The notes: a model not told the origin generated them from the sequence alone. A DNA stretch of 16,076 nucleotides from a virus (IMGVR_UViG_2541047946_000010); one strand, 5' to 3'; counted from the first letter of the stretch, positions 1-16,076 are shown. A program made the numbers and translations.

Positions 1-1284
1 TTACTTCTTCGCCTCTGCAACCACTTTACTACCCACGCCGCGGTTATTGTATTCCCACATGCGGTTGTAGTTAGTGTCATTCAGATTGCGCTGTATTTCG
101 TCGTTATCATCTACGCTGCCGGTATTACCCGCAAACGGACGATTAGAGATCACCGCATCGGCCCACGGTTTAGCCGTGTTAAAACCTTCGTTGATGGCGC
201 TATCACGGATCACCACCTGACCGTTGGTATTGGCATCAACATCCAGCGAGCGGCCCAGTTGCGCCACACCATCACCGAAAGCATTGAAACGGCTGTTTAC
301 GGCGAGGAAACCGTAGTAAATGTTGGACAGCGTAGCCGGTGCAAACACATACGCTTCTTGCTGAGTACGTGAGTTCACCACGCGGAATTCGGTGTTATCG
401 AACACCACTGCGCCGCGACCAGAAACGATATCCACATCCCCTTCAATGTAGCTGTTGGTCACCAGCGTACGCGGCTGACGATTCGTTTCCAGACGGTTCT
501 GCACACCGCTGTTGGTGACAAAGAAGGTGTTCTGACGACCGAGAATGTTAACGTTGTTAATCTGTACCTGGTCACCATCAGTACGCAGTGCCACCGCCGG
601 ATGGTTACCTGCATCTACGCTATCGCCCAGCGTGTTTTCGATGGTCAGATTTTGCAGTTGCAGGCCATTGTTTTGTGACCAGAAGACCGCAGAGCAGAGA
701 ACACCGATACTGTCGCTGCGTTTGCTCTGGCAGCTATCGTACATATACCACGCTGGTTTACCTGGCATATATTTGCCGCGCGGGTTGACGTCGTGACGCC
801 AGTCGGCAGGGCTCATGCCACCATCAAGGGAAAGCCCAATCTTCACATCAATCGGTTTTTCACCTGTACCGTACAGAGTAATTCCACCCGGAGCGGCAGG
901 GACATATACCGTTCCCTGATACTCACCAGGCATCACGGCAATATACTGGCGCTTGTTGGTACGCTTGATAATTGCCGCATCTACCGCCGCCTGAATCGTG
1001 GTATGCGTTACACCTTGAGTGCCCGCCGGGCCGACAACAAAGTCAGGTTGCGCAGGCAGGGTAATCGGGGAAGGATTCCACGCTGCAGCACCTGGTGTCA
1101 GGGATGCAAAATAGTGTTGAGCATCGAAATTCTGCGCTTCTTTTGCCGACAGAATCGGGCGAGAAGAGGTACCAGGCGCGGTTTGATCAGAAGGACGTTG
1201 ATCGGGCGGGGTTGAGCTACAGGCGGTCAGCGTCACGCCAAAAGCCAATGCCAGCGCCAGACGGGAAACTGAAAATGTGTTCAC
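1..1284 (-). CDS. ybhC: Host outer-membrane lipoprotein YbhC (pectinesterase-family), complete
   Basis: 427-aa ORF ending in TAA at 1-3; GTG start at 1282-1284 with GGAG about 8 nt upstream; N-terminal signal peptide with lipobox LTAC; recognised from memory as E. coli YbhC, the gene flanking attB-lambda. Confidence 0.88.
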   Translation of the reverse strand: MNTFSVSRLALALAFGVTLTACSSTPPDQRPSDQTAPGTSSRPILSAKEAQNFDAQHYFASLTPGAAAWNPSPITLPAQPDFVVGPAGTQGVTHTTIQAAVDAAIIKRTNKRQYIAVMPGEYQGTVYVPAAPGGITLYGTGEKPIDVKIGLSLDGGMSPADWRHDVNPRGKYMPGKPAWYMYDSCQSKRSDSIGVLCSAVFWSQNNGLQLQNLTIENTLGDSVDAGNHPAVALRTDGDQVQINNVNILGRQNTFFVTNSGVQNRLETNRQPRTLVTNSYIEGDVDIVSGRGAVVFDNTEFRVVNSRTQQEAYVFAPATLSNIYYGFLAVNSRFNAFGDGVAQLGRSLDVDANTNGQVVIRDSAINEGFNTAKPWADAVISNRPFAGNTGSVDDNDEIQRNLNDTNYNRMWEYNNRGVGSKVVAEAKK

Positions 1285-1309: not shown

Positions 1310-1418
1310 AAAATGAATCCGTTGAAGCCTGCTTTTTTATACTAAGTTGGCATTATAAAAAAGCATTGCTTATCAATTTGTTGCAACGAACAGGTCACTA
1401 TCAGTCAAAATAAAATCA
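1310..1418. other. attL: Prophage attachment site attL (bacterial arm, core, phage P' arm); core GCTTTTTTATACTAA at 1331-1345
   Basis: Exact 15-bp lambda att core at 1331-1345, followed by P'-arm-like sequence (GTTGGCATTATAAAAAAGCATTGCTTATCAATTTGTTGCAACGAACAGGTCACTATCAGTCAAAATAAAATCATT) with arm-type Int motifs (CAGGTCACTATCAGTCAAAAT); bacterial sequence on the left leads into ybhC. Confidence 0.85.
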
Positions 1419-2489
1419 TTATTTGATTTCAATTTTGTCCCACTCCCTGCCTCTGTCATCACGATACTGTGATGCCATGGTGTCCGACTTATGCCCGAGA
1501 AGATGTTGAGCAAACTTATCGCTTATCTGCTTCTCATAGAGTCTTGCAGACAAACTGCGCAACTCGTGAAAGGTAGGCGGATCCCCTTCGAAGGAAAGAC
1601 CTGATGCTTTTCGTGCGCGCATAAAATACCTTGATACTGTGCCGGATGAAAGCGGTTCGCGACGAGTAGATGCAATTATGGTTTCTCCGCCAAGAATCTC
1701 TTTGCATTTATCAAGTGTTTCCTTCATTGATATTCCGAGAGCATCAACATGCAATGCTGTTGGGATGGCAATTTTTACGCCTGTTTTGCTTTGCTCGACA
1801 TAAAGATATCCATCTACGATATCAGACCACTTCATTTCGCATAAATCACCAACTCGTTGCCCGGTAACAACAGCCAGTTCCATTGCAAGTCTAAGCCAAC
1901 ATGGTGATGATTCTGCTGCTTGATAAATTTTCAGGTATTCGTCAGCCGTAAGTCTTGATCTCCTTACCTCTGATTTTGCAGCGCGAGTGGCTGCGACCGG
2001 GTTTGTTGTTATATGGCCTTCAGCCATAGCCTCTCGGAATGCATCGCTCAGTGTTGATCTGATTAACTTGGCTGATGCCGCCTTTCCCTCGTCTATGTAT
2101 CCATTGAGCATTGCCGCAATTTCTTTTGTGGTGATGTCTTCAAGTGGAGCATCAGGCAGACCCCTCCTTATTGCTTTAATTTTGCTCATGTAATTTATGA
2201 GTGTCTTCTGCTTGATTCCTCTGCTGGCCAGGATTTTTTCGTAGCGATCAAGCCATGAATGTAATGTAACGGAATTATCACTGTTGATTCTCGCTGTCAG
2301 AGGCTTGTGTTTGTGTCCTGAAAATAACTCAATGTTGGCCTGTATAGCTTCAGTGATTGCGATTCGCCTGTCTCGGCCTAATCCAAACTCTTTACCCGTC
2401 CTTGGGTCCCTGTAGCAGTAATATCCATTGTTTCTTATATAAAGGTTAGGGGGTAAATCCCGGCGCTCATGACTTCGCCTTCTTCCCAT
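1419..2489 (-). CDS. int: Tyrosine integrase, lambda Int type
   Basis: 356-aa ORF; N-terminus MGRRRSHERRDLPPNLYIRNNGYYCYRDPRTGKEFGLGRD and C-terminal catalytic region (HELRSL...LLGH...Y) recognised as lambda Int; sits directly next to attL. Confidence 0.97.
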   Translation of the reverse strand: MGRRRSHERRDLPPNLYIRNNGYYCYRDPRTGKEFGLGRDRRIAITEAIQANIELFSGHKHKPLTARINSDNSVTLHSWLDRYEKILASRGIKQKTLINYMSKIKAIRRGLPDAPLEDITTKEIAAMLNGYIDEGKAASAKLIRSTLSDAFREAMAEGHITTNPVAATRAAKSEVRRSRLTADEYLKIYQAAESSPCWLRLAMELAVVTGQRVGDLCEMKWSDIVDGYLYVEQSKTGVKIAIPTALHVDALGISMKETLDKCKEILGGETIIASTRREPLSSGTVSRYFMRARKASGLSFEGDPPTFHELRSLSARLYEKQISDKFAQHLLGHKSDTMASQYRDDRGREWDKIEIK

Positions 2490-2685
2490 TTCTGATCCTC
2501 TTCAAAAGGCTACCTGTTACTGGTCGATTTAAGTCAACCTTTACCGCTGATTCGTGGAACAGATATTCTCTTCCATCCTTAACCGGAGGAGGGAATATCC
2601 TGCATTCGCGCACCCATCGACGAACTGTTTCAAGGCTTCTTGGGCGTCGCTGGCGAGCGTTCCACTCCTGAAGTGTCAAGTACAT
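2467..2685 (-). CDS. xis: Excisionase Xis
   Basis: 72-aa ORF MYLTLQEWNARQRRPRSLETVRRWVRECRIFPPP... recognised as lambda Xis; its 3' end overlaps the int start by 23 nt, as in lambda. Confidence 0.95.
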   Translation of the reverse strand: MYLTLQEWNARQRRPRSLETVRRWVRECRIFPPPVKDGREYLFHESAVKVDLNRPVTGSLLKRIRNGKKAKS

Positions 2686-2712
2686 CGCAAAGTCTCCGCA
2701 ATTACACGCAAG

Positions 2713-2732
2713 AAAAAACCGCCATCAGGCGG
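2713..2732 (-). terminator. Intrinsic terminator on minus strand between the 55-aa ORF and xis
   Basis: Minus-strand RNA would read CCGCC-UGAU-GGCGG followed by UUUUUU (plus-strand AAAAAACCGCCATCAGGCGG); the stop codon of the 55-aa ORF lies in the loop. Confidence 0.4.
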
Positions 2733-2892
2733 CTTGGTGTTCTTTCAGTTCTTCAATTCGAATATTGGTTACGTCTGCATGCGCTATCTGCGCCCATATC
2801 ATCCAGTGGTTATAGCAGTCGTTGATGTTCTCTGCTTCGATAACCCTGTTGAATGGCTCTCCATTCCATTCACCTGTGACTCGGAAGTGCAT
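2725..2892 (-). CDS. Small hypothetical protein, 55 aa (lambda xis-ea8.5 interval ORF)
   Basis: ATG at 2892 to TGA at 2725, translated by hand as MHFRVTGEWNGEPFNRVIEAENINDCYNHWMIWAQIAHADVTNIRIEELKEHQAA; below the 60-aa cut-off of the supplied ORF track; position matches a small ORF in lambda. Confidence 0.5.
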   Translation of the reverse strand: MHFRVTGEWNGEPFNRVIEAENINDCYNHWMIWAQIAHADVTNIRIEELKEHQAA

Positions 2893-2980
2893 TTATCATC
2901 TCCATAAAACAAAACCCGCCGTAGCGAGTTCAGATAAAATAAATCCCCGCGAGTGCGAGGATTGTTATGTAATATTGGGT

Positions 2981-3262
2981 TTAATCATCTATATGTTTTG
3001 TACAGAGAGGGCAAGTATCGTTTCCACCGTACTCGTGATAATAATTTTGCACGGTATCAGTCATTTCTCGCACATTGCAGAATGGGGATTTGTCTTCATT
3101 AGACTTATAAACCTTCATGGAATATTTGTATGCCGACTCTATATCTATACCTTCATCTACATAAACACCTTCGTGATGTCTGCATGGAGACAAGACACCG
3201 GATCTGCACAACATTGATAACGCCCAATCTTTTTGCTCAGACTCTAACTCATTGATACTCAT
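2981..3262 (-). CDS. ea8.5: Ea8.5-like protein (Cys/His-rich, putative zinc-binding)
   Basis: 93-aa ORF MSINELESEQKDWALSMLCRSGVLSPCRHHEG...CPLCTKHIDD, recognised as lambda Ea8.5; in the expected position upstream of xis. Confidence 0.85.
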   Translation of the reverse strand: MSINELESEQKDWALSMLCRSGVLSPCRHHEGVYVDEGIDIESAYKYSMKVYKSNEDKSPFCNVREMTDTVQNYYHEYGGNDTCPLCTKHIDD

Positions 3263-3367
3263 TTATAAACTCCTTGCAATGTATGTCGTTTCAGCTAAAC
3301 GGTATCAGCAATGTGAACCGCCCCGGGAATCCTGGAGACTAAACTTCCTGAGAAAGAGGTAAACAGG

Positions 3368-3694
3368 ATGACTAAAAATACTCGTTTTTCCCCTGAAGTC
3401 CGTCAACGGGCAGTCCGTATGGTTCTGGAAAGTCAGGGCGAATATGACTCACAATGGGCGACAATTTGTTCCATTGCTCCAAAGATTGGCTGTACGCCGG
3501 AGACTCTGCGTGTCTGGGTTCGCCAGCATGAGCGGGATACCGGGGGCGGTGATGGAGGGCTCACCACCGCTGAACGTCAGCGTCTGAAAGAGCTGGAGCG
3601 TGAAAATCGTGAACTGCGCCGCAGTAACGATATCCTTCGCCAGGCTTCCGCTTATTTTGCGAAGGCGGAGTTCGACCGCCTCTGGAAAAAATGA
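3368..3694 (+). CDS. IS3-family transposase OrfA (helix-turn-helix and leucine-zipper part)
   Basis: 108-aa [33 protein letters not shown]... recognised as IS629/IS1203-group OrfA; ends in an A6 run (AAAAAA at 3686-3691) that overlaps the orfB start. Confidence 0.93.
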
Positions 3695-4581
3695 TGCCAC
3701 TGCTGGATAAGCTGCGTGAGCAGTACGGGGTCGGACCGCTATGCAGCGAACTGCATATTGCCCCGTCAACGTATTACCACTGTCAGCAACAGCGACATCA
3801 TCCGGATAAACGCAGTGCCCGTGCGCAGCGCGATGACTGGCTGAAGAAAGAGATACAGCGCGTATACGATGAAAATCACAAGGTATACGGTGTGCGTAAA
3901 GTCTGGCGTCAGTTGTTACGGGAAGGTATCAGAGTGGCCAGATGCACTGTGGCACGTCTCATGGCGGTTATGGGACTTGCCGGTGTTCTCCGGGGTAAAA
4001 AGGTCCGTACGACCATCAGCCGGAAAGCCGTTGCCGCAGGCGACCGCGTAAACCGTCAGTTCGTGGCAGAACGACCTGACCAGCTGTGGGTGGCTGATTT
4101 TACTTACGTCAGCACATGGCAGGGCTTCGTCTATGTGGCGTTCATCATTGATGTGTTTGCCGGATACATTGTGGGGTGGCGGGTCTCATCGTCCATGGAG
4201 ACGACATTCGTGCTGGATGCACTGGAGCAGGCGTTATGGGCCCGTCGACCGTCCGGCACGGTCCATCACAGTGATAAAGGTTCTCAGTATGTATCGCTGG
4301 CCTACACACAGCGGCTTAAGGAAGCCGGATTACTGGCATCAACAGGAAGTACAGGCGACTCGTATGACAACGCGATGGCGGAGAGCATCAATGGTCTTTA
4401 CAAAGCGGAGGTAATACACCGTAAGAGCTGGAAAAACCGTGCAGAAGTGGAACTGGCCACACTCACGTGGGTGGACTGGTATAACAATCGACGATTGCTG
4501 GAAAGGCTGGGCCATACTCCTCCGGCAGAAGCAGAAAAAGCTTATTATGCTTCCATCGGAAACGATGATCTGGCAGCCTGA
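3691..4581 (+). CDS. IS3-family transposase OrfB (DDE catalytic domain), in -1 frame relative to orfA
   Basis: 296-aa ORF; DDE residues visible in [16 protein letters not shown] and [12 protein letters not shown]; starts with ATG overlapping the orfA TGA, consistent with programmed -1 frameshift fusion typical of IS3 elements. Confidence 0.93.
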
Positions 4582-4623
4582 GTTCACAGATAAAATACTC
4601 TCCAGGAAACCCGGGGCGGTTCA

Positions 4624-5469
4624 GAGCGTAATGTGGCAGATCTCGATGATGGTTACGCCAGACTATCAAATATGCTGCTTGAGGCTTATTCAGGCGCAGA
4701 TCTGACCAAGCGACAGTTTAAAGTGCTGCTTGCCATTCTGCGTAAAACCTATGGGTGGAATAAACCAATGGACAGAATCACCGATTCTCAACTTAGCGAG
4801 ATTACAAAGTTACCCGTCAAACGGTGCAATGAAGCCAAGTTAGAACTCGTCAGAATGAATATTATCAAGCAGCAAGGCGGCATGTTTGGACCAAACAAAA
4901 ACATCTCAGAATGGTGCATCCCTCAAAACGAGGGAAAATCCCCTAAAACGAGGGATAAAACATCCCTCAAATTGGGGGATTGCTATCCCTCAAAACAGGG
5001 GGACACAAAAGACACTATTACAAAAGAAAAAAGAAAAGATTATTCGTCAGAGAATTCTGGCGAATCCTCTGACCAGCCAGAAAACGACCTTTCTGTGGTG
5101 AAACCGGATGCTGCAATTCAGAGCGGCAGCAAGTGGGGGACAGCAGAAGACCTGACCGCCGCAGAGTGGATGTTTGACATGGTGAAGACCATCGCGCCAT
5201 CAGCCAGAAAACCGAATTTTGCAGGGTGGGCTAACGATATCCGCCTGATGCGTGAACGTGACGGACGTAACCACCGCGACATGTGCGTGCTGTTCCGCTG
5301 GGCATGCCAGGACAACTTCTGGTCCGGTAACGTGCTTAGCCCGGCCAAACTCCGCGACAAGTGGACCCAGCTCGAAATCAACCGTAACAAGCAACAGGCA
5401 GTCGTGACAGCCAGCAAACCAAAACTCGACCTGACAAACACAGACTGGATTTACGGGGTGGATCTATGA
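4624..5469 (+). pseudogene. O: Replication initiator O, 5'-truncated by the IS (first ~20 codons and promoter missing)
   Basis: The reading frame runs straight out of the IS right end (GGTTCA|GAG CGT AAT GTG GCA GAT CTC = ERNVADL...); remaining 281 codons match lambda O from residue ~21 to the C-terminus (…DWIYGVDL); first in-frame starts are GTG 4633 and ATG 4672; no upstream pR or ribosome-binding context. Confidence 0.85.
4918..5050. repeat. ori-lambda: four iterons (each an inverted repeat of TCCCTCAAAACGAGGGA type) plus adjacent AT-rich unwinding region
   Basis: Four tandem ~19-24-bp repeats (ATCCCTCAAAACGAGGGA / AAATCCCCTAAAACGAGGGATAAA / ACATCCCTCAAATTGGGGGATTGCT / ATCCCTCAAAACAGGGGGAC) followed by an A-rich tract (AAAAGACACTATTACAAAAGAAAAAAGAAAAGATTATT), located inside O as in lambda. 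Confidence 0.85.
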
Positions 5470-6167
5470 AAAACATCGCCGCACAGATGGTTAACTTTGA
5501 CCGTGAGCAGATGCGTAGGATCGCCAACAACATGCCGGAACAGTACGACGAAAAGCCGCAGGTACAGCAGGTAGCGCAGATCATCAACGGTGTGTTCAGC
5601 CAGTTACTGGCAACTTTCCCGGCGAGTCTGGCTAACCGTGACCAGAACGAACTGAACGAAATCCGCCGCCAGTGGGTTCTGGCTTTCCGGGAAAACGGGA
5701 TCACCACAATGGAACAGGTTAACGCAGGAATGCGCGTAGCCCGTCGGCAGAATCGACCATTTCTGCCATCACCCGGGCAGTTTGTTGCATGGTGCCGGGA
5801 AGAAGCATCCGTTATCGCCGGACTGCCAAACGTCAGCGAGCTGGTTGATATGGTTTACGAGTATTGCCGGAAGCGAGGCCTGTATCCGGATGCGGAGTCT
5901 TATCCGTGGAAATCAAACGCGCACTACTGGCTGGTTACCAACCTGTATCAGAACATGCGGGCCAATGCGCTTACTGATGCGGAATTACGCCGTAAGGCCG
6001 CAGATGAGCTTGTCCATATGACTGCGAGAATTAACCGTGGTGAGGCGATCCCTGAACCAGTAAAACAACTTCCTGTCATGGGCGGTAGACCTCTAAATCG
6101 TGCACAGGCTCTGGCGAAGATCGCAGAACTCAAAGCTAAGTTCGGACTGAAAGGAGCAAGTGTATGA
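5466..6167 (+). CDS. P: Replication protein P (DnaB helicase loader)
   Basis: 233-aa ORF MKNIAAQMVNFDREQMRRIANNMPEQYDEKPQ... recognised as lambda P; its ATG overlaps the O stop (ATGA). Confidence 0.95.
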   Translation: MKNIAAQMVNFDREQMRRIANNMPEQYDEKPQVQQVAQIINGVFSQLLATFPASLANRDQNELNEIRRQWVLAFRENGITTMEQVNAGMRVARRQNRPFLPSPGQFVAWCREEASVIAGLPNVSELVDMVYEYCRKRGLYPDAESYPWKSNAHYWLVTNLYQNMRANALTDAELRRKAADELVHMTARINRGEAIPEPVKQLPVMGGRPLNRAQALAKIAELKAKFGLKGASV

Positions 6168-6454
6168 CGGGCAAAGAGGCAATTATTCATTACCTGGGGA
6201 CGCATAATAGCTTCTGTGCGCCGGACGTTGCCGCGCTAACAGGCGCAACAGTAACCAGCATAAATCAGGCCGCGGCTAAAATGGCACGGGCAGGTCTTCT
6301 GGTTATCGAAGGTAAGGTCTGGCGAACGGTGTATTACCGGTTTGCTACCAGGGAAGAACGGGAAGGAAAGATGAGCACGAACCTAATTTTTAAGGAGTGT
6401 CGCCAGAGTGCCGCGATGAAACGGGTATTGGCGGTATATGGAGTTAAAAGATGA
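6164..6454 (+). CDS. ren: Ren protein (protection from Rex exclusion)
   Basis: 96-aa ORF MTGKEAIIHYLGTHNSFCAPDVAALTGATV... recognised as lambda Ren; ATGA overlap with the P stop. Confidence 0.9.
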   Translation: MTGKEAIIHYLGTHNSFCAPDVAALTGATVTSINQAAAKMARAGLLVIEGKVWRTVYYRFATREEREGKMSTNLIFKECRQSAAMKRVLAVYGVKR

Positions 6455-6480
6455 CCATCTACATCACTGAGCTAATAACA

Positions 6481-6510
6481 GGCCTGCTGGTAATTGCAGG
6501 CCTTTTTATT
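6481..6510 (+). terminator. Intrinsic terminator, lambda tR2 equivalent (between ren and ninB)
   Basis: GGCCTGC-TGGTAATT-GCAGGCC hairpin followed by TTTTTATTT on the plus strand. Confidence 0.6.
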
Positions 6511-6527
6511 TGGGGGAGAGGGAAGTC

Positions 6528-6968
6528 ATGAAAAAACTAACCTTTGAAATTCGATCTCCAGCACATCAGCAAAACGCTATTCACGCGGTACAGCAAATTC
6601 TTCCAGACCCAACCAAACCAATCGTAGTAACCATTCAGGAACGCAACCGCAGCTTAGACCAGAATCGAAAGCTTTGGGCTTGCCTTGGTGACGTCTCTCG
6701 TCAGGTTGAATGGCATGGTCGCTGGCTGGATGCAGAAAGCTGGAAGTGTGTGTTTACCGCAGCATTAAAGCAGCAGGATGTTGTTCCTAACCTTGCCGGG
6801 AATGGCTTTGTGGTAATAGGCCAGTCAACCAGCAGGATGCGTGTAAGCGAATTTGCGGAGCTATTAGAGCTTATACAGGCATTCGGTACAGAGCGTGGCG
6901 TTAAGTGGTCAGACGAAGCGCGACTGGCTCTCGAATGGAAAGCGCGATGGGGAGATCGGGCTGCATGA
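6528..6968 (+). CDS. ninB: NinB (Orf recombination mediator family)
   Basis: 146 aa from ATG 6528 (MKKLTFEIRSPAHQQNAIHAVQQ...), with a purine-rich ribosome-binding site GGGAGAGGGAAG upstream; the ORF-track start at 6510 is a TTG extension; recognised as lambda NinB. Confidence 0.9.
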   Translation: MKKLTFEIRSPAHQQNAIHAVQQILPDPTKPIVVTIQERNRSLDQNRKLWACLGDVSRQVEWHGRWLDAESWKCVFTAALKQQDVVPNLAGNGFVVIGQSTSRMRVSEFAELLELIQAFGTERGVKWSDEARLALEWKARWGDRAA

Positions 6969-7492
6969 CTATCAAATCAAATACGCCAGCACACGACAAG
7001 GACTGCTGGCAAACGCCGCTTTGGCTTTTTGATGCACTGGATATTGAGTTTGGATTCTGGCTGGATTCGGCAGCGAGCGACAAAAATGCTCTGTGCGCTC
7101 ACTGGCTAACTGAGGACGACGACGCGCTCAATTCTGAGTGGGTAAGCCACGGTGCAATCTGGAATAACCCACCGTACAGCAATATCAGGCCGTGGGTGGA
7201 AAAAGCCGCTGAGCAGTGTATACAACAGCGACAGACGGTAGTGATGCTTGTGCCAGAGGATATGTCTGTCGGATGGTTCAGCAAGGCTCTGGAGAGTGTT
7301 GACGAAGTTCGTATTATCACTGATGGACGGATTAATTTTATCGAACCATCGACAGGGCTGGAGAAGAATGGAAACAGCAAAGGCTCCATGCTGCTGATTT
7401 GGCGACCGTTCATCAGTCCTCGACGGATGTTTACTACCGTATCCAAAGCGGCATTGATGGCGATCGGGCAGGGCGTCAGGAGGGCTGCATGA
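6965..7492 (+). CDS. Phage orphan DNA N6-adenine methyltransferase (Dam-like)
   Basis: 175 aa from ATG 6965, which overlaps the ninB stop (ATGA); contains NPPY catalytic motif (WNNPPYS) and an upstream DxFxGxG-like region ([17 protein letters not shown]); occupies the position of ninC/ninD in lambda. Confidence 0.82.
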
Positions 7493-7665
7493 GACGACAG
7501 CGACGAAGCATCACCGACATAATCTGCGAAAACTGCAAATACCTTCCAACGAAATGCTCCAGAAATAAACGCAAGCTAATCCCAAAAGAATCTGACGTAA
7601 AAACCTTCAATTACACAGCCCACCTGTGGGATATCCGGTGGCTAAGATATCGTGCGAGGAAATGA
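7489..7665 (+). CDS. ninE: NinE
   Basis: 58 aa from ATG 7489 ([29 protein letters not shown]...), ATGA overlap with the methyltransferase stop; recognised as NinE; the longer ORF from 7399 in the track is an in-frame upstream extension. Confidence 0.8.
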
Positions 7666-8009
7666 CAATGGATTATTCACAGTTAAGTGATTTTGAAATT
7701 AACAGAATGGTAGGAGACATAATTTTTAAAGGCCTTTGGGCAAGTAAACCGGAAACATCAGGGAATAACACCAACAAATGGTATTACGGAAATGCTGATA
7801 CAACTTTTGAGCCATTAAATCATTTGCCTGACTACTGCAATGATCCGAGCGCTTCATGGCCGATTATTGAGAAATACAGGATTTCTATCTTAGACCAGTT
7901 AACTGAATGGTGTGTGGATGCAAAAGGCGTAAGCCCAATATTTGATACCAGACCTCTCCGCGCCGCCATGATTGTCTTTCTCCTGATGCAGGAGGCCAAT
8001 AATGCTTAG
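7662..8009 (+). CDS. Hypothetical acidic protein of unknown function (nin-region accessory ORF)
   Basis: 115 aa from ATG 7662, overlapping the ninE stop ([26 protein letters not shown]...); translational coupling with neighbours argues for a real gene; no recognisable motif; lambda has no counterpart between ninE and ninF. Confidence 0.6.
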
Positions 8010-8196
8010 CCCATCTCAATCCCTTCAATACCTGAAAGAAAGCATAGAGCGGGCTTCAATGTGCACAGAGTGGATTCTATCTAGGTTTAGCGCATACAGA
8101 AGATTGCCGGTAAAGGGCATGCCAAGCAAGTCGATGCTGCATATGCAAAAGAATGCGCGCTGGAAGGTATGGCGAGAACACAGGTTATGTGGCTAA
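8002..8196 (+). CDS. NinF-like small protein with divergent C-terminus (possible mosaic or frameshifted remnant)
   Basis: 64-aa ORF; the first ~18 residues ([18 protein letters not shown]) resemble lambda NinF, the rest does not; a different frame over 8091-8216 encodes ...[28 protein letters not shown], which I recall as the C-terminus of DLP12 YbcO (DUF1364). Confidence 0.4.
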
Positions 8197-8215
8197 AAGA
8201 GGGGGTTATTAAGGC

Positions 8216-8578
8216 GTGAATACCTACAGCATCACATTACCCTGGCCTCCGAGCAATAATCGCTATTACCGCCATAATCGCGGGCGCACGCACGTCAGCG
8301 CAGAGGGGCAGGCATACCGCGATAACGTCGCCCGAATCATTAAAAACGCAATGCTGGATATCGGCCTGGCTATGCCTGTGAAAATCCGCATTGAGTGCCA
8401 CATGCCGGATCGCCGTCGCCGTGACCTGGATAATCTGCAAAAAGCCGCTTTTGACGCACTCACTAAAGCAGGTTTCTGGCTGGATGATGCTCAGGTCGTT
8501 GATTACCGCGTTGTGAAGATGCCTGTTACCAAAGGTGGGAGGCTGGAACTGACCATCACCGAAATGGGGAATGAATGA
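8216..8578 (+). CDS. rusA: Holliday-junction resolvase RusA
   Basis: 120-aa ORF with GTG start, [41 protein letters not shown]..., recognised as RusA of DLP12/phage 82 type; it occupies the place of ninG/rap in lambda. Confidence 0.93.
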
Positions 8579-8715
8579 TGTTTGAGTTTAATATGGCAGA
8601 ACTTCTTCGCCACCGCTGGGGGCGTCTGCGCTTATATCGTTTCCCCGGTTCTGTTTTGACCGATTACCGAATACTGAAGAATTACGCCAAAACCCTGACA
8701 GGAACAGGAGTATGA
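8575..8715 (+). CDS. ylcG: Small protein YlcG-like (46 aa)
   Basis: Hand translation from ATG 8575 gives [46 protein letters not shown], stop at 8713-8715; overlaps the rusA stop; matches my recollection of DLP12 YlcG; below the ORF-track cut-off. Confidence 0.6.
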
Positions 8716-8800
8716 AGTCAGAGATAACAATCAACTAATACTGTTTTGTTGATTTTTGCTTGTAATTGGCGTTCTGGTCTGATTTTTGTGGAGTAAGTTG

Positions 8801-9184
8801 ATGCGTGATATTCAGATGGTTCTTGAGCGTTGGGGTGCGTGGGCGGCTAATAATCATGAAGATGTGACCTGGTCGTCCATTGCCGCCGGTTTTAAGGGAT
8901 TAATTCCTTCAAAAGTAAAATCTCGCCCGCAATGTTGTGACGATGACGCGATGATCATTTGCGGGTGCATGGCCCGTCTGAAAAAGAACAACAGCGATTT
9001 ACACGATTTATTAGTAGATTATTATGTATGTGGTATGACATTCATGTCACTGGCAAGTAAGCATTGCTGCTCGGATGGTTATATCGGGAAAAGGTTACAG
9101 AAGGCTGAGGGCATAATTGAAGGGATGTTAATGGCATTAGATATCCGGTTAGATATGGATATCGTTGCTAATAATTCTAATTGA
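8801..9184 (+). CDS. Q: Late-gene antiterminator Q (short QuuD/phage-21-like type)
   Basis: 127 aa from ATG 8801 with GGAG 7 nt upstream ([24 protein letters not shown]... with Cys-rich [12 protein letters not shown]); the ORF-track start at 8786 is a TTG extension; lies immediately upstream of the late promoter region and lysis genes. Confidence 0.85.
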
Positions 9185-9202
9185 TATGCAATTGTTTACT
9201 AA

Positions 9203-9235
9203 AAGTTATTAAAAATGGGGCGTGGAAACGCCCCC
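9203..9235 (-). terminator. Intrinsic terminator on minus strand, likely 3' end of the porin transcript
   Basis: Minus-strand RNA would read GGGGCG-UUUCCA-CGCCCC followed by AUUUUUAAUAACUUUU. Confidence 0.45.
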
Positions 9236-9321
9236 AAAATAAAGGGTAATATATAACAGAAGGTTTATATAGTAAGAAGCAAGGTAGTGCTTCTAAAGGA
9301 AGTGGCTTGAGGGCTCCACTT

Positions 9322-9361
9322 ATATGTTGCGGAGGCAAAGCCTCCCGCAACATATCTTTTT
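9322..9361 (+). terminator. Intrinsic terminator on plus strand downstream of Q (tR'-like); also a 3' stem-loop of the convergent porin gene
   Basis: ATATGTTGCGGAGGC-AAA-GCCTCCCGCAACATAT (about 15-bp stem with one bulge) followed by CTTTTT. Confidence 0.6.
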
Positions 9362-9372
9362 CGTAAGTCAGA

Positions 9373-10455
9373 TTAGAACTGATAAACCAGACCTACAGCG
9401 ACGATGTCGTCGGTATCAATACCAGCTGTTTTGGTAAACTTACTATCGTCAATTAAGTTGATTTTGTAATCAACAAAAGTAGACATGTTTTTATTAAAGT
9501 AGTAAGTAGCACCGACATCGACATACTTGACTAAGTCTCGGTCACCATGAACACCAAGGTCTTTACCTTTTGACTGAAGGTAAGCAACAGATGGGCGCAG
9601 ACCGAAGTCAAACTGATATTGTGCTACTGCTTCAAAGTTTTGTGCTTTGTTTGCAATATGGTTATTACCAAAAACGGTCATATTCTGAGTTTCAGAATAT
9701 GTGGTAGCCAGATAGATATTGTTCGCATCATATTTCAGGCCTGCAGCCCATACTTCCGCATTTTTGCCGGAGGCATTGAATTTGCTCTTACCATAGGCGA
9801 CCTGACCGTCAGTGCGATCTGATTTAGCATAGGTTGCACCCACGCCGAATCCTTCATACTCATAAGTAGTGGAGAAACCGAAACCATCACCATTGGCTTC
9901 AGTTACGTCAGTGCGGTCATTTTTACCCTGATACTGAGCAGCAAAGTTCAGGCCATCGACCAGACCAAAGAAGTCGTTGTTACGATAAGTTGCAACACCA
10001 GTAGTGCGACCAGTCATGAACACATCTGTTTGGGTCCAGGTATCACCACCGAATTCTGGCAGAACGTCAGTCCACGCACCGATGTCGTATGCTACACCGT
10101 AGTTACGGCCGTAATCGATGGAGCCGTAATCACCAAATTTCAGGCCTGCAAATGCAAGACGGGTTTTGTCTTTGGAAGAACCTTGAGATTCAGCACGGTT
10201 GCCTTTGAATTCATATTCCCACTGACCGAAACCAGTCAGTTGATCGTTGATTTGGGTTTCACCTTTGAAGCCAAGACGGGCATAAGTAGTATCACCATCA
10301 TCTGCATCATTAGAGGAGAAGTAGTGCTTGGCATTAACTTTCCCGTATAGATCCAGCTTGTTACTGTCTTTATTATAAATTTCAGCTGCCTGAGCAGACA
10401 TCGCCATCAGTACTGATGCAGCTACAGCAGAAATTGCCACTGTTAATTTTTTCAT
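9373..10455 (-). CDS. nmpC: Phage-borne OmpC-family general porin (NmpC/Lc-like moron)
   Basis: 360 aa from ATG 10455 with AAGGG ribosome-binding site; signal peptide [23 protein letters not shown] followed by [17 protein letters not shown]-terminal ...VGLVYQF with terminal Phe; classic 16-strand porin hallmarks; the upstream Met at 10515 lacks a ribosome-binding site and is rejected. Confidence 0.92.
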
Positions 10456-10880
10456 TGTACGCCCTTTTTTTGAACTATTATTAAAAAATGATGTCACTGC
10501 GCGATAAATATTCATCTAATCAATGTGATTATTTCAAGATGTAAGTTTTAGTTTCTCATTTAATTTGTGAAGTAGATCTCTATTTTTATCTGAACCTTTT
10601 CTATCTAATCCTATTCATGGCTCTTGTCTGAACAAAAATAAATCTATTAGCTAATTTATATTAATGGCACTTATTTATAAGTGCTCTATAATTCTTTAGC
10701 TTAATTTAAACAAACTAAAAATAACATCGGAAATTATTAACTGATTATTTGTTGAAGTTTTCTTATGTATTTGTGGTGGTGTTTTGAACACTCGGTGGCA
10801 TTCTCACAAATATCATTTAGTAGTTTACGTACGTAAAAAATTGGTTATGCTGTTAAGAGTGGTTACTTCGTCACACAGCT
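10456..10880 (-). promoter_or_regulatory. AT-rich porin upstream regulatory region (promoter not precisely mapped)
   Basis: About 425 bp of visibly AT-rich non-coding DNA upstream of the porin start, contrasting with flanking phage genes; typical of horizontally acquired morons and of porin control regions. Confidence 0.35.
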
Positions 10881-10881
10881 T

Positions 10882-10912
10882 AAACCCGCCGTCGAGCGGG
10901 TTTTTCCATTTT
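10882..10912 (+). terminator. Intrinsic terminator on plus strand upstream of the lysis cassette
   Basis: AAACCCGC-CGTCGA-GCGGGTTT followed by TTCCATTTTTT. Confidence 0.5.
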
Positions 10913-11043
10913 TTGAGTCTCGATATTAGCTGATAACCCAATACCTGAGTTATTCACTGACTCCGAATCTGTTACGTTTCTGCCTTTATTGCGATACGTA
11001 ATATCCCCTTAATTTACACCCGCTTTGTCTGCGAGGTGGGGTT

Positions 11044-11259
11044 ATGAAATCCATGGATAAGTTAACAACGGGTGTCGCCTATGGCACCTCAGCAGGTAGT
11101 GCCGGTTACTGGTTTTTACAGCTGCTCGATAAAGTCACGCCCTCACAGTGGGCAGCAATAGGTGTGCTGGGTAGCCTGGTATTTGGCCTGCTGACGTACC
11201 TGACAAACCTTTATTTCAAGATTAAAGAAGATAAGCGCAAGGCTGCGAGAGGTGAATAA
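11044..11259 (+). CDS. S: Class II holin (pinholin, phage 21 S type) with dual-start motif
   Basis: 71 aa, [26 protein letters not shown]...; Met1-Lys-Ser-Met4 dual start; two hydrophobic segments; GAGGTGG ribosome-binding site; recognised as the S21/EssD family. Confidence 0.9.
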
Positions 11260-11756
11260 TGCCTCCATCATTACGAAAAGCCGTTGCTGCTGCTATTGGT
11301 GGCGGAGCAATTGCTATAGCATCAGTGTTAATCACTGGCCCAAGTGGTAACGATGGTCTGGAAGGTGTCAGCTACATACCATACAAAGATATTGTTGGTG
11401 TATGGACTGTATGTCACGGGCATACAGGAAAAGACATCATGCTCGGTAAAACGTATACCAAAGCAGAATGCAAAGCCCTCCTGAATAAAGACCTTGCCAC
11501 GGTCGCCAGACAAATTAACCCGTACATCAAAGTCGATATACCGGAAACAATGCGCGGCGCTCTTTACTCATTCGTTTACAACGTGGGTGCTGGCAATTTC
11601 AGAACATCGACGCTTCTTCGCAAAATAAACCAGGGCGATATCAAAGGCGCATGTGATCAGCTACGTCGCTGGACATATGCTGGCGGTAAGCAATGGAAAG
11701 GTCTCATGACTCGTCGTGAGATTGAGCGTGAAATCTGTTTGTGGGGTCAGCAATGA
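11259..11756 (+). CDS. R: SAR endolysin (T4-lysozyme-like muramidase with N-terminal signal-arrest-release domain)
   Basis: 165 aa; Gly/Ala-rich N-terminal transmembrane segment [20 protein letters not shown]; catalytic E-x8-D-x5-T pattern in [18 protein letters not shown]; start overlaps the holin stop (TAATG). Confidence 0.9.
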
Positions 11757-12214
11757 ACAGAGTAACCGCGATTATCTCCGCTCTGGTTATCTGCATCATC
11801 GTCTGCCTGTCATGGGCTGTTAATCATTACCGTGATAACGCCATTACCTACAAAGCCCAGCGCGACAAAAATGCCAGAGAACTGAAGCTGGCGAACGCGG
11901 CAATTACTGACATGCAGATGCGTCAGCGTGATGTTGCTGCGCTCGATGCAAAATACACGAAGGAGTTAGCTGATGCGAAAGCTGAAAATGATGCTCTGCG
12001 TGATGATGTTGCCGCTGGTCGTCGTCGGTTGCACATCAAAGCAGTCTGTCAGTCAGTGCGTGAAGCCACCACCGCCTCCGGCGTGGATAATGCAGCCTCC
12101 CCCCGACTGGCAGACACCGCTGAACGGGATTATTTCACCCTCAGAGAGAGGCTGATCACTATGCAAAAACAACTGGAAGGAACCCAGAAGTATATTAATG
12201 AGCAGTGCAGATAG
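11753..12214 (+). CDS. Rz: Rz inner-membrane spanin
   Basis: 153 aa from ATG 11753, overlapping the endolysin stop; N-terminal transmembrane segment, coiled-coil-like middle; recognised as lambda-type Rz. Confidence 0.88.
11973..12155 (+). CDS. Rz1: Rz1 outer-membrane lipoprotein spanin, embedded in the +1 frame of Rz
   Basis: 60 aa [20 protein letters not shown]... with lipobox VVGC and proline-rich mature part ([16 protein letters not shown]); lies entirely inside Rz. Confidence 0.82.
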
Positions 12215-12245
12215 AGCTGCCCATATCGATGGGCAACTCATGCAA

Positions 12246-12539
12246 TTATTGTGAGCAATACACACGCGCTTCCAGCGGAGTATAAATGCCTAAAGTAATA
12301 AAACCGAGAAATCCATTTACGAATGTTTGCTGGGTTTCTGTTTTAACAACATTTTCTGCGCCGCCACAAATTTTGGCTGCATCAACAGTTTTCTCCTGTC
12401 CAATTCCCGAAACGAAGAAATGATGGGTGATGGTTTCCTTTGGTGTTACTGCTGTCGGTTTGTTTCCAACAGTAAACGTCTGTTGAGCACATCCTGTAAT
12501 AAGCATTGCCAGAGCGGCAGAAAACAACATTTTTTTCAT
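12246..12539 (-). CDS. bor: Bor lipoprotein (serum-resistance-associated)
   Basis: 97 aa from ATG 12539 (MKKMLFSAALAMLITGCAQQTFTV...), lipobox ITGC; recognised as lambda Bor; the ORF-track start at 12587 is an upstream extension. Confidence 0.9.
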   Translation of the reverse strand: MKKMLFSAALAMLITGCAQQTFTVGNKPTAVTPKETITHHFFVSGIGQEKTVDAAKICGGAENVVKTETQQTFVNGFLGFITLGIYTPLEARVYCSQ

Positions 12540-12655
12540 CTTATTATCCTGCATTGTTAAAAACGGCAGAATCCTATGTGACAACAATTAAACGATAGTT
12601 AAATGGATTGATGAAAATTAAAACTATATAGGTGGATGCTCAGCCTATTGGAGGA

Positions 12656-12664
12656 GGGGGGGGG
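12656..12664. repeat. G9 homopolymer tract within a purine-rich run (GGAGGAGGGGGGGGG)
   Basis: Nine consecutive G at 12656-12664, about 117 bp upstream of the bor start codon, in non-coding DNA. Confidence 0.9.
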
Positions 12665-12901
12665 CACTCAGAATCCTGTGGAATGAAATAAACCGCTCTA
12701 TCTGTCCATTACCCTTTTAGCTGCGCTGTATCGTCGCCGTATTCCCGCATTAACCATGACCGTAGCCCGACGGGGAATTCCTTCTGCGTGAGTGTGCGGG
12801 AATAATCAAAAACGATGCACACCGGGTTTTACTGTGCTGACAGACGCAGGGTTACCCTCATAGTCGCTTTTCCGGTGCGATGGTGGAAGAAACCGGGATG
12901 T

Positions 12902-13096
12902 TCATCCATCATCACTTTGGATTGATGTATATGCTCTCTTTTCTGACGTTAGTCTCCGACGGCAGGCTTCAATGACCCAGGCTGAGAAATTCCCAGACCC
13001 TTTTTGCTCAAGAGCGATGTTAATTTGTTCAATCATTTGGTTAGGAAAGCGGATGTTGCGGGTTGTTGTTCTGCGGGTTCTGTTCTTCGTTGACAT
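12902..13096 (-). CDS. Small basic protein, probable ribbon-helix-helix DNA binder (YlcI/DUF3950-like)
   Basis: 64-aa ORF MSTKNRTRRTTTRNIRFPNQMIEQINIALEQKGSGNFSAWVIEACRRRL...; basic N-terminus followed by an RHH-like strand-helix pattern; lies just upstream of cos on the opposite strand. Confidence 0.6.
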   Translation of the reverse strand: MSTKNRTRRTTTRNIRFPNQMIEQINIALEQKGSGNFSAWVIEACRRRLTSEKRAYTSIQSDDG

Positions 13097-13249
13097 GAGG
13101 TTGCCCCGTATTCAGTGTCGCTGATTTGTATTGTCTGAAGTTGTTTTTACGTTAAGTTGATGCAGATCAATTAATATGATACCTGCGTCATAATTGATTA
13201 TTTGACGTGGTTTGATGGCGTAGATGCACGTTGTGACATGCAGATGATA

Positions 13250-13470
13250 ATTATTATCATTTTGCGGGTCCTTTCCGGCGATCCGACAGGTTACGGGGCG
13301 GCGACCTCGCGGGTTTTCGCTATTTATGAAAATTTTCCGGTTTAAGGCGTTTCCGTTCTTCTTCGTCATAACTTAATGTTTTTATTTAAAATACCCTCTG
13401 AAAAGAAAGGAAACGACAGGTGCTGAAAGCGAGCTTTTTGGCCTCTGTCGTTTCCTTTCTCTGTTTTTGT
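13250..13470. other. cos: Cohesive end site cos: cosQ, cosN (GGGCGGCGACCT at 13296-13307) and cosB with three R elements
   Basis: Exact lambda 12-nt cohesive-end sequence preceded by ...CCGACAGGTTACG; downstream heptamers CGTTTCC (13348), GGAAACG (13409, inverted) and CGTTTCC (13449) match the R3/R2/R1 layout, with an AT-rich IHF-like tract between the first two. Confidence 0.88.
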
Positions 13471-13484
13471 CCGTGGAATGAACA

Positions 13485-14004
13485 ATGGAAGTCAACAAAA
13501 AGCAGCTGGCTGACATTTTCGGTGCGAGTATCCGTACCATTCAGAACTGGCAGGAACAGGGAATGCCCGTTCTGCGAGGCGGTGGCAAGGGTAATGAGGT
13601 GCTTTATGACTCTGCCGCCGTCATAAAATGGTATGCCGAAAGGGATGCTGAAATTGAGAACGAAAAGCTGCGCCGGGAAGTTGAAGAACTGCGGCAGGCC
13701 AGCGAGACAGATCTCCAGCCAGGGACTATTGAGTACGAACGCCACCGACTTACGCGTGCACAGGCCGACGCACAGGAGCTGAAAAATGCCAGAGACTCCG
13801 CTGAAGTGGTGGAAACCGCATTCTGTACTTTCGTGCTGTCGCGGATCGCAGGTGAAATTGCCAGTATTCTCGACGGGATCCCCCTGTCGGTGCAGCGGCG
13901 TTTTCCGGAACTGGAAAACCGACATGTTGATTTCCTGAAACGGGATATCATCAAAGCCATGAACAAAGCAGCCGCGCTGGATGAACTGATACCGGGGTTG
14001 CTGA

Positions 14005-14030
<26 letters not shown>
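13485..14030 (+). CDS. Nu1: Terminase small subunit Nu1
   Basis: 181-aa ORF MEVNKKQLADIFGASIRTIQNWQEQGMPVLRGGGKGNEVLYD... recognised as lambda Nu1 (winged-HTH N-terminus). Confidence 0.97.

Positions 14031-16076
<2,046 letters not shown>

Follow-up and report, generated by a model that had tools for sequence, protein, structure and literature searches.

A complete copy of the insertion sequence (IS) IS629 stands in the place of the whole early and immunity region in a lambda-like prophage of Escherichia coli, and it joins a point just upstream of ea8.5 to the 5' part of the replication gene O without a target-site duplication. We describe this arrangement in a stretch of 16,076 nucleotides (IMGVR_UViG_2541047946_000010; the whole stretch is further called the window), which matches over its full length the minus strand of the chromosome of E. 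coli MMC-J-0105 (NZ_CM128543.1, 3511083-3527158). The structure shows that the deletion is IS629-associated, and we propose, at a probability of about 0.55, that IS629 was first inserted in O and that a transposase-made adjacent deletion then proceeded leftward. Coordinates of the features are collected in Table 1.

Structure of the deletion

The element occupies exactly 1310 bp, and its flanks are ..CAGCAATG on the left and GAGCGTAATG.. on the right; written together with the IS ends (a slash marks the joint), the junctions read ..GGTATCAGCAATG/TGAACC..GGTTCA/GAGCGTAATGTGG... No 3- or 4-bp repeat is common to both sides, as ATG stands against GAG and AATG against GAGC, and the window copy is thus devoid of the duplication of 3-4 bp; this was already the reading of the initial annotation. 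The latter had placed the left flank just upstream of ea8.5, and the break can now be positioned 51 bp upstream of the start codon of this gene, at lambda position 29706. The right break, between 4623 and 4624, corresponds to lambda 38740 and to nucleotide 55 of O, which makes GAG codon 19; the flank does lie inside O, as was suggested, though not at codon 21 or so. The first usable start codon of the O remnant is a GTG at 4633 (codon 22), where the annotated remnant also begins, and the predicted ori iterons, transferred from lambda coordinates, would be found at about 4918-5002.

Initially the element had been called IS629-like and given a span of 3314-4672. Its start was right, while the end included 49 bp of O, the real end being at 4623, and judged by an identity of 99.9% over all 1310 bp the element is IS629 itself. 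The reference copies were annotated by their depositors in the Shiga toxin (Stx) phage records LC567824.1 and LC567828.1. The terminal repeats are 25 bp long, imperfect, and start with TGAACC (TGAACCGCCCCGGG..), so the element has the 5'-TG and CA-3' ends of its kind. With both transposase reading frames present and a programmed frameshift that is also marked in the RefSeq annotation, the window IS629 is apparently functional. The missing duplication reflects the history of this particular copy and not the identity of the element.

The nearest intact relative of the prophage is the deposited complete phage PhiR11_1 (PV340547.1). Window positions 1350-3313 are equal to PhiR11_1 1-1964 at 100% identity, and positions 4624-16076 to PhiR11_1 11259-22709 at 99.9%. 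The distance between the two flanks is 9033 bp in lambda, in agreement with the roughly 9 kb expected earlier, and 9294 bp in PhiR11_1, where the missing block comprises ea22, a number of small genes, exo, bet, gam, ea10, ral, sieB, N, a pair of unnamed genes, cI, cro and cII, and ends after codon 18 of O. The absence of the early and immunity region is hereby supported, with a correction for rexAB, which had been listed among the losses: the two unnamed genes occupy its position in the nearest relative. In all intact relatives that we examined 9 kb separate the two flanks, and the pattern is not due to chance. Host chromosome (ybhC) and attL, the left attachment site, fill positions 1-1349, so chromosome and attL, the PhiR11_1 arms and IS629 together explain the window to the last base; therefore cI, cro, N, cII, pL and pR cannot be in the window, and the earlier statement that repressor, N and pL/pR are lacking stands.

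We also considered that the early region had been relocated and not lost, and rejected it. The block from N to the 5' end of O in PhiR11_1 (7564-11258), which makes up the right-hand 3.7 kb of the 9.3 kb missing, is near-whole in only seven genomes. Since MMC-J-0105 is not one of them, the early-region DNA is, as judged from the assembled sequence, lost from this genome and not moved.

The same prophage offers a control for the behaviour of the element. A second IS629, 100% identical and in opposite orientation, lies in the side tail-fibre gene stf (locus L006 15616-16925); its flanks are collinear and it has a perfect 3-bp duplication, TAA, therefore IS629 normally makes 3-bp duplications and the window copy is an exception. 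The sister strain E. coli LC-1302-2020 (NZ_CP091756.1, sequence type 10, Illumina and Nanopore hybrid assembly) harbours this prophage at an identical location, differing by 0 to 2 bases over >30 kb, and has no IS629 in the tail-fibre gene: its site is empty, with a single TAA. It follows that the tail-fibre insertion is later than the split of the strains and that IS629 is currently active in the clone. Two other elements, an IS2-type element and ISEc23, are situated in the tail-fibre and accessory region (L006 about 12900-14250 and about 10000-12500, respectively), where they interrupt collinear sequence with flank alignments overlapping by ~6 and ~9 bp, as target duplications would. Both insertions are common to the two strains, and the IS2 of PhiR11_1 is at a different site. 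Altogether the prophage has four IS elements, three of them outside the window, in the tail-fibre region.

Origin of the deletion

According to the reading that we favour, one IS629 would have inserted in the 5' end of O at the triplet GAG (codon 19); the transposase would next have linked the left end of the IS to a target on the same molecule 9.3 kb leftward, just upstream of ea8.5, and the intervening DNA would have been lost. Such a route predicts a complete IS with exact ends, an old junction IS/GAGCGT, a new junction AATG/IS and no duplication. The structure seen in the window corresponds to this signature, with flanks that are non-contiguous in intact relatives. The adjacent deletion and the recombination between IS copies, both named in the initial annotation, are indeed the right candidates, as these are the two recognised causes of missing duplications (PMC11708052), and they are not separable with certainty. 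Of the 68 events of IS150, also of the IS3 family, in the long-term evolution experiment, 14 were deletions, from 14 bp to 48,894 bp and none with a duplication, and all 14 were traced to an earlier single insertion followed by adjacent deletion and sometimes by extension (PMC11708052). It is this precedent, together with the need for two events only and an O junction nearly conserved between the sister strains, that makes us prefer insertion in O followed by leftward deletion.

A less probable but still tenable scenario is that two independently inserted IS629 copies, which lay in like orientation upstream of ea8.5 and in O, were recombined in a RecA-dependent manner, so that 9.3 kb and one IS were deleted and a hybrid copy remained. 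Several points favour it: the genome of MMC-J-0105 has ~20 sites bearing IS629 ends (23 places), IS629 favours prophages (PMC3271280), a second IS629 is already present in the same prophage, and recombination of this type is known to remove duplications (PMC11708052). Moreover, IS629 isoforms are repeatedly met in the cII/O neighbourhood of lambdoid prophages of other strains. In the lambdoid prophage of strain E2865 (NZ_AP018808.1, L009 2841-4150) an isoform of 95.8% identity stands without duplication between a truncated sieB and cII (..GGATGGAG/IS/GCGTGATG..), N, cI and cro being missing, an arrangement that, by the geometry of the hits, is apparently found in about 20 similar genomes as well. 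In MS 119-7 (NZ_CP146653.1, L008 2841-4150) an isoform accompanied by a TTA duplication lies 2 bp before the start codon of O, and cI, cro and cII are intact. These cases suggest that the cII/O stretch of lambdoid prophages is a recurrent target of IS629, or else that insertions there are recurrently kept. Against the recombination of two copies speak the three events it needs instead of two, the failure to find either a single insertion or a two-copy intermediate in 5426 complete E. coli genomes and in the contig scans, and the fact that in the systematic IS150 data set the duplication-free deletions were all adjacent ones, from one earlier insertion (PMC11708052). The second IS629 of this prophage was rejected as the recombination partner, for it has its own TAA duplication and the region from O to stf is collinear with PhiR11_1.

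The search for close relatives of the junctions covered the same 5426 genomes, where both junctions (300-bp queries) were found in MMC-J-0105 alone; the exact junction patterns, with 0-3 bp of slack, gave nothing in metagenome, species-representative and viral contigs. One match that looked like a common IS/O junction (H15, ECO2947) was discarded: what lies there is another isoform of IS629 (94.8% identity), situated between ren and ninB, and the apparent junction came from the merging of pieces in the search.

The sister strain has a scar of its own at this locus. The same IS629 (100%) is present there in inverted orientation (L004 5293-6602), with the junctions ..int GATTCTC/IS(reverse)/CGTAATGTGG... 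Its left break corresponds to window position 2292, inside int, and the right one to window 4627, 3 bp further into O (/CGTAATG), the O-side GAG being lost. On the IS strand, GAG adjoins the right IS end in both strains; the native int sequence at the left junction of LC-1302-2020 is CTC, which makes the GAG there ambiguous. As the sister allele has less DNA than the window allele, it cannot be ancestral to it, and a single deletion or a single homologous exchange could not have produced it from the window allele either. Adjacent deletion, homologous exchange, replicative inversion and a tandem-dimer junction were each followed on paper as one-step derivations, and none works; on the same paper reasoning, the sister allele would need either a new inverted copy with an adjacent deletion or a collapsed head-to-head intermediate. 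The sister allele does show that IS629 has been active at the early-region locus since the divergence of both strains.

In LC-1302-2020 the IS is still at most 3 bp from the same point of O and the other flank has moved 1021 bp left into int, which suggests that the O-side junction is the older one and a fixed anchor. The same observation bears on the reverse order of events, in which IS629 would have been inserted upstream of ea8.5, duplicating ATG or AATG, and its right end then transferred rightward into O. This order would leave an identical signature, a complete IS without duplication and flanks 9 kb apart, and we regard it as unlikely, because the sister strain lost the ea8.5-side junction and kept the O side; the counter-argument is itself weak, as the sister IS is inverted.

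It would be rather speculative, and in our estimate improbable to a slightly greater degree, to view the two isolates as successive steps of an IS629-driven erosion in which the 3-nt spacer GAG, the triplet beside the right IS end of the window copy, was carried from the donor site in the IS circle and guided the re-insertion. GAG again adjoins the right IS end of the sister allele, at an int site that natively has the complementary CTC, and it has disappeared from the O side. If this were true, either 5' flaps of the circle biasing insertion toward complementary triplets, or flipping of the IS with its 3-bp flank, would constitute an undescribed kind of target selection for copy-out/paste-in elements. 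For IS30 and IS911, inverted repeat to inverted repeat (IR-IR) junctions are known to give deletions and inversions that begin exactly at the edge of the inverted repeat, and some elements prefer insertion beside an IS end (PMC9333248). Such end preference, known from elements other than IS629, could explain a sister junction 3 bp from the old one; the end-targeting of IS30 is head-to-tail only, unlike the inverted sister IS.

Several points weigh against insertion in O with a subsequent leftward deletion. The anchor argument is suggestive and not clean, given that the sister IS is inverted and its O junction shifted by 3 bp. Neither the 5426 complete E. coli genomes nor the metagenome, species-representative and viral contigs yielded a prophage with a GAG-flanked simple insertion of IS629 in O. 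Recombination between two IS629 copies would give the same end product, which the sequence alone cannot tell apart. Finally, how copy-out/paste-in elements make adjacent deletions is still debated (bioRxiv 10.1101/2023.06.07.543989).

An error of assembly, in which a real early region between two IS629 copies was collapsed by the assembler, has also to be mentioned, IS copies being classic sites of such errors. We consider it very improbable: LC-1302-2020 is also devoid of the whole early region, with different junctions in an independent hybrid assembly, the missing block is nowhere in the MMC-J-0105 assembly, and a collapse normally breaks a contig and does not remove 9 kb of unique sequence.

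Relation to known systems

The closest parallel is IS629 of enterohaemorrhagic E. coli (EHEC), in particular O157:H7. The element is the same (99.9%) and so is its preference for lambdoid prophages: in O157:H7 genomes 62% of the copies are in prophages, and of all 47 sites fewer than half, 21, have a duplication (PMC3271280). Deletions from a few bases to >40 kb arise beside IS629 when its transposase works in concert with the excision enhancer IEE (PMC9943667, citing Ooka 2009 and Kusumoto 2011; bioRxiv 10.1101/2023.06.07.543989). The isoform of E2865 described above is an independent example of the phenomenon. Unlike in that group, the host here is a sequence type 10-like commensal or clinical strain, the prophage is at the lambda attachment site and the breakpoints are specific to MMC-J-0105.

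With the IS150 series (PMC11708052) our case shares the complete IS at a deletion joint, the absence of duplication and the stepwise order of insertion, adjacent deletion and extension, with deletions to 49 kb, and the sister pair resembles two stages in a series of this kind. The differences are that the earlier insertions of IS150 were seen in frozen ancestors and that in our pair the later stage also has an inverted IS.

The cryptic lambdoid prophages of K-12, DLP12, Rac and Qin, are defective through loss of regulatory or replication functions. What they keep is int/xis, the genes of Q-like antiterminators and of lysis, and accessory ones, for example a porin gene and bor/iss. DLP12-type gene names, namely quuD, essD, rrrD, rzpD and nohD, also occur in the window. 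In contrast to the K-12 prophages, the one described here is far less decayed, with a full head and tail set and 99.9% identity to PhiR11_1, and its inactivation is traceable to one dated, IS-marked event.

The prophage and its retained genes

The element is a lambda-like prophage integrated in the E. coli chromosome at the classical attachment site of lambda. The att core is placed between ybhC on the left and ybhB/bio on the right, as at the lambda site, and the far end of the prophage, matching PhiR11_1 position 49016, abuts ybhB and the bio operon (ybhB-bioA). The gene order of lambda is kept, and on either side of the IS the sequence is 98.5-98.7% identical to that of lambda. The immunity module (cI, cro and operators) and N, by which a lambdoid prophage is recognised, are absent, which makes the element a defective prophage. 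Between the window and the MMC-J-0105 RefSeq record there are two single-base differences, 15420 (C for T) and 15444 (A for G), both synonymous, at third codon positions of the terminase large-subunit gene; at these positions PhiR11_1 and the sister strain side with the MMC-J-0105 record against the window.

After the att core, the minus-strand order is int, xis, a small open reading frame and ea8.5. The retention of intact int/xis, Q, lysis and packaging genes, as initially described, is well borne out: int, xis, Q and the lysis and terminase genes share 99.9-100% identity with their PhiR11_1 counterparts, and P, the nin genes, the head and tail genes, the porin gene and iss/bor are intact besides. 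Two extra G residues relative to PhiR11_1 are present at 12656-12657, between bor/iss and the next gene, and the sister strain has the same.

Table 1. Features of the window, with positions counted from its first nucleotide
Feature	Position	Strand	Evidence
ybhC (chromosomal, not phage)	1..1284	-	RefSeq annotation of the source record; 100% match to MMC-J-0105
attL core GCTTTTTTATACTAA, left end of the prophage	1331..1345	+	Exact match to lambda att core 27724-27738
int, integrase, intact	1419..2489	-	List of open reading frames; 100% to PhiR11_1, 98.7% to lambda
xis, excisionase, intact	2467..2685	-	List of open reading frames, annotation, PhiR11_1 comparison
ea8.5, last phage gene before the left breakpoint	2981..3262	-	List of open reading frames; comparison with lambda and PhiR11_1
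Left breakpoint region, 51 bp upstream of ea8.5	3263..3313	.	Break between 3313 and 3314 = lambda 29706 = PhiR11_1 1964
IS629, complete, 1310 bp	3314..4623	+	99.9% identity over positions 1-1310 to annotated 'IS3 family IS629'
IRL, left terminal inverted repeat	3314..3338	+	23/25 bases match the right repeat
orfA, predicted DNA-binding part of the transposase	3368..3694	+	Pfam HTH_Tnp_1 (N-terminal helix-turn-helix), E = 6e-13
Predicted programmed -1 frameshift signal, ALIL pseudoknot after slippery A-run GGAAAAAATGA	3649..3765	+	Rfam RF01497, 120 bits against a threshold of 50
orfB, predicted catalytic part of the transposase, open reading frame	3691..4581	+	Pfam rve (DDE), E = 5e-28
IRR, right terminal inverted repeat	4599..4623	+	25-bp end comparison
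O, replication gene without its first 18 codons	4624..5469	+	Comparison with lambda and PhiR11_1; Pfam Phage_rep_O
P, replication gene, intact; heads the retained rightward block P, ren, nin genes, Q	5466..6167	+	
Q, late antiterminator (annotated quuD), intact, cut off from pR	8801..9184	+	
OmpC/NmpC-type porin gene, between Q and the lysis genes	9373-10515	-	
Lysis genes S, R, Rz, intact	11044..12214	+	
iss/bor, serum-resistance lipoprotein gene, after Rz	12246-12587	-	
Terminase genes Nu1, A, intact	13485..15930	+	

Consequences for the prophage and its host

Judged by its gene content, the prophage is without cI, cro, cII, N, pL, pR, nutL/nutR, the recombination genes and the start of O. 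Because of this loss it would have no immunity, would not be inducible by cleavage of a repressor, as the initial annotation had soundly deduced, and would be unable to transcribe the early and late operons from its own promoters or to fire its origin. The genes int and xis would not be expressible from pL or pI, Q would not be reached from pR, and int, xis, Q, lysis, head and tail genes probably persist as silent cargo. A consensus scan for an outward promoter at the IS/O junction found none, which is weak evidence either way. An incoming lambdoid phage could rescue the retained genes by recombination.

Duplication-free IS629 copies and IS-linked deletions of prophages are already known, and our finding is an ordinary instance of a documented process that opens no new biological question; the sister pair may be useful as a natural substrate for the study of IS629 rearrangements. 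Prophage-prediction tools may call an element of this kind 'intact' on account of its head, tail and lysis genes, despite the absence of a repressor, of early promoters and of a full O. We see the value of the case in a fully mapped example of how an active IS locks a working temperate phage as a silent prophage in one step, and the host keeps the porin, iss/bor and structural genes of the disabled phage.

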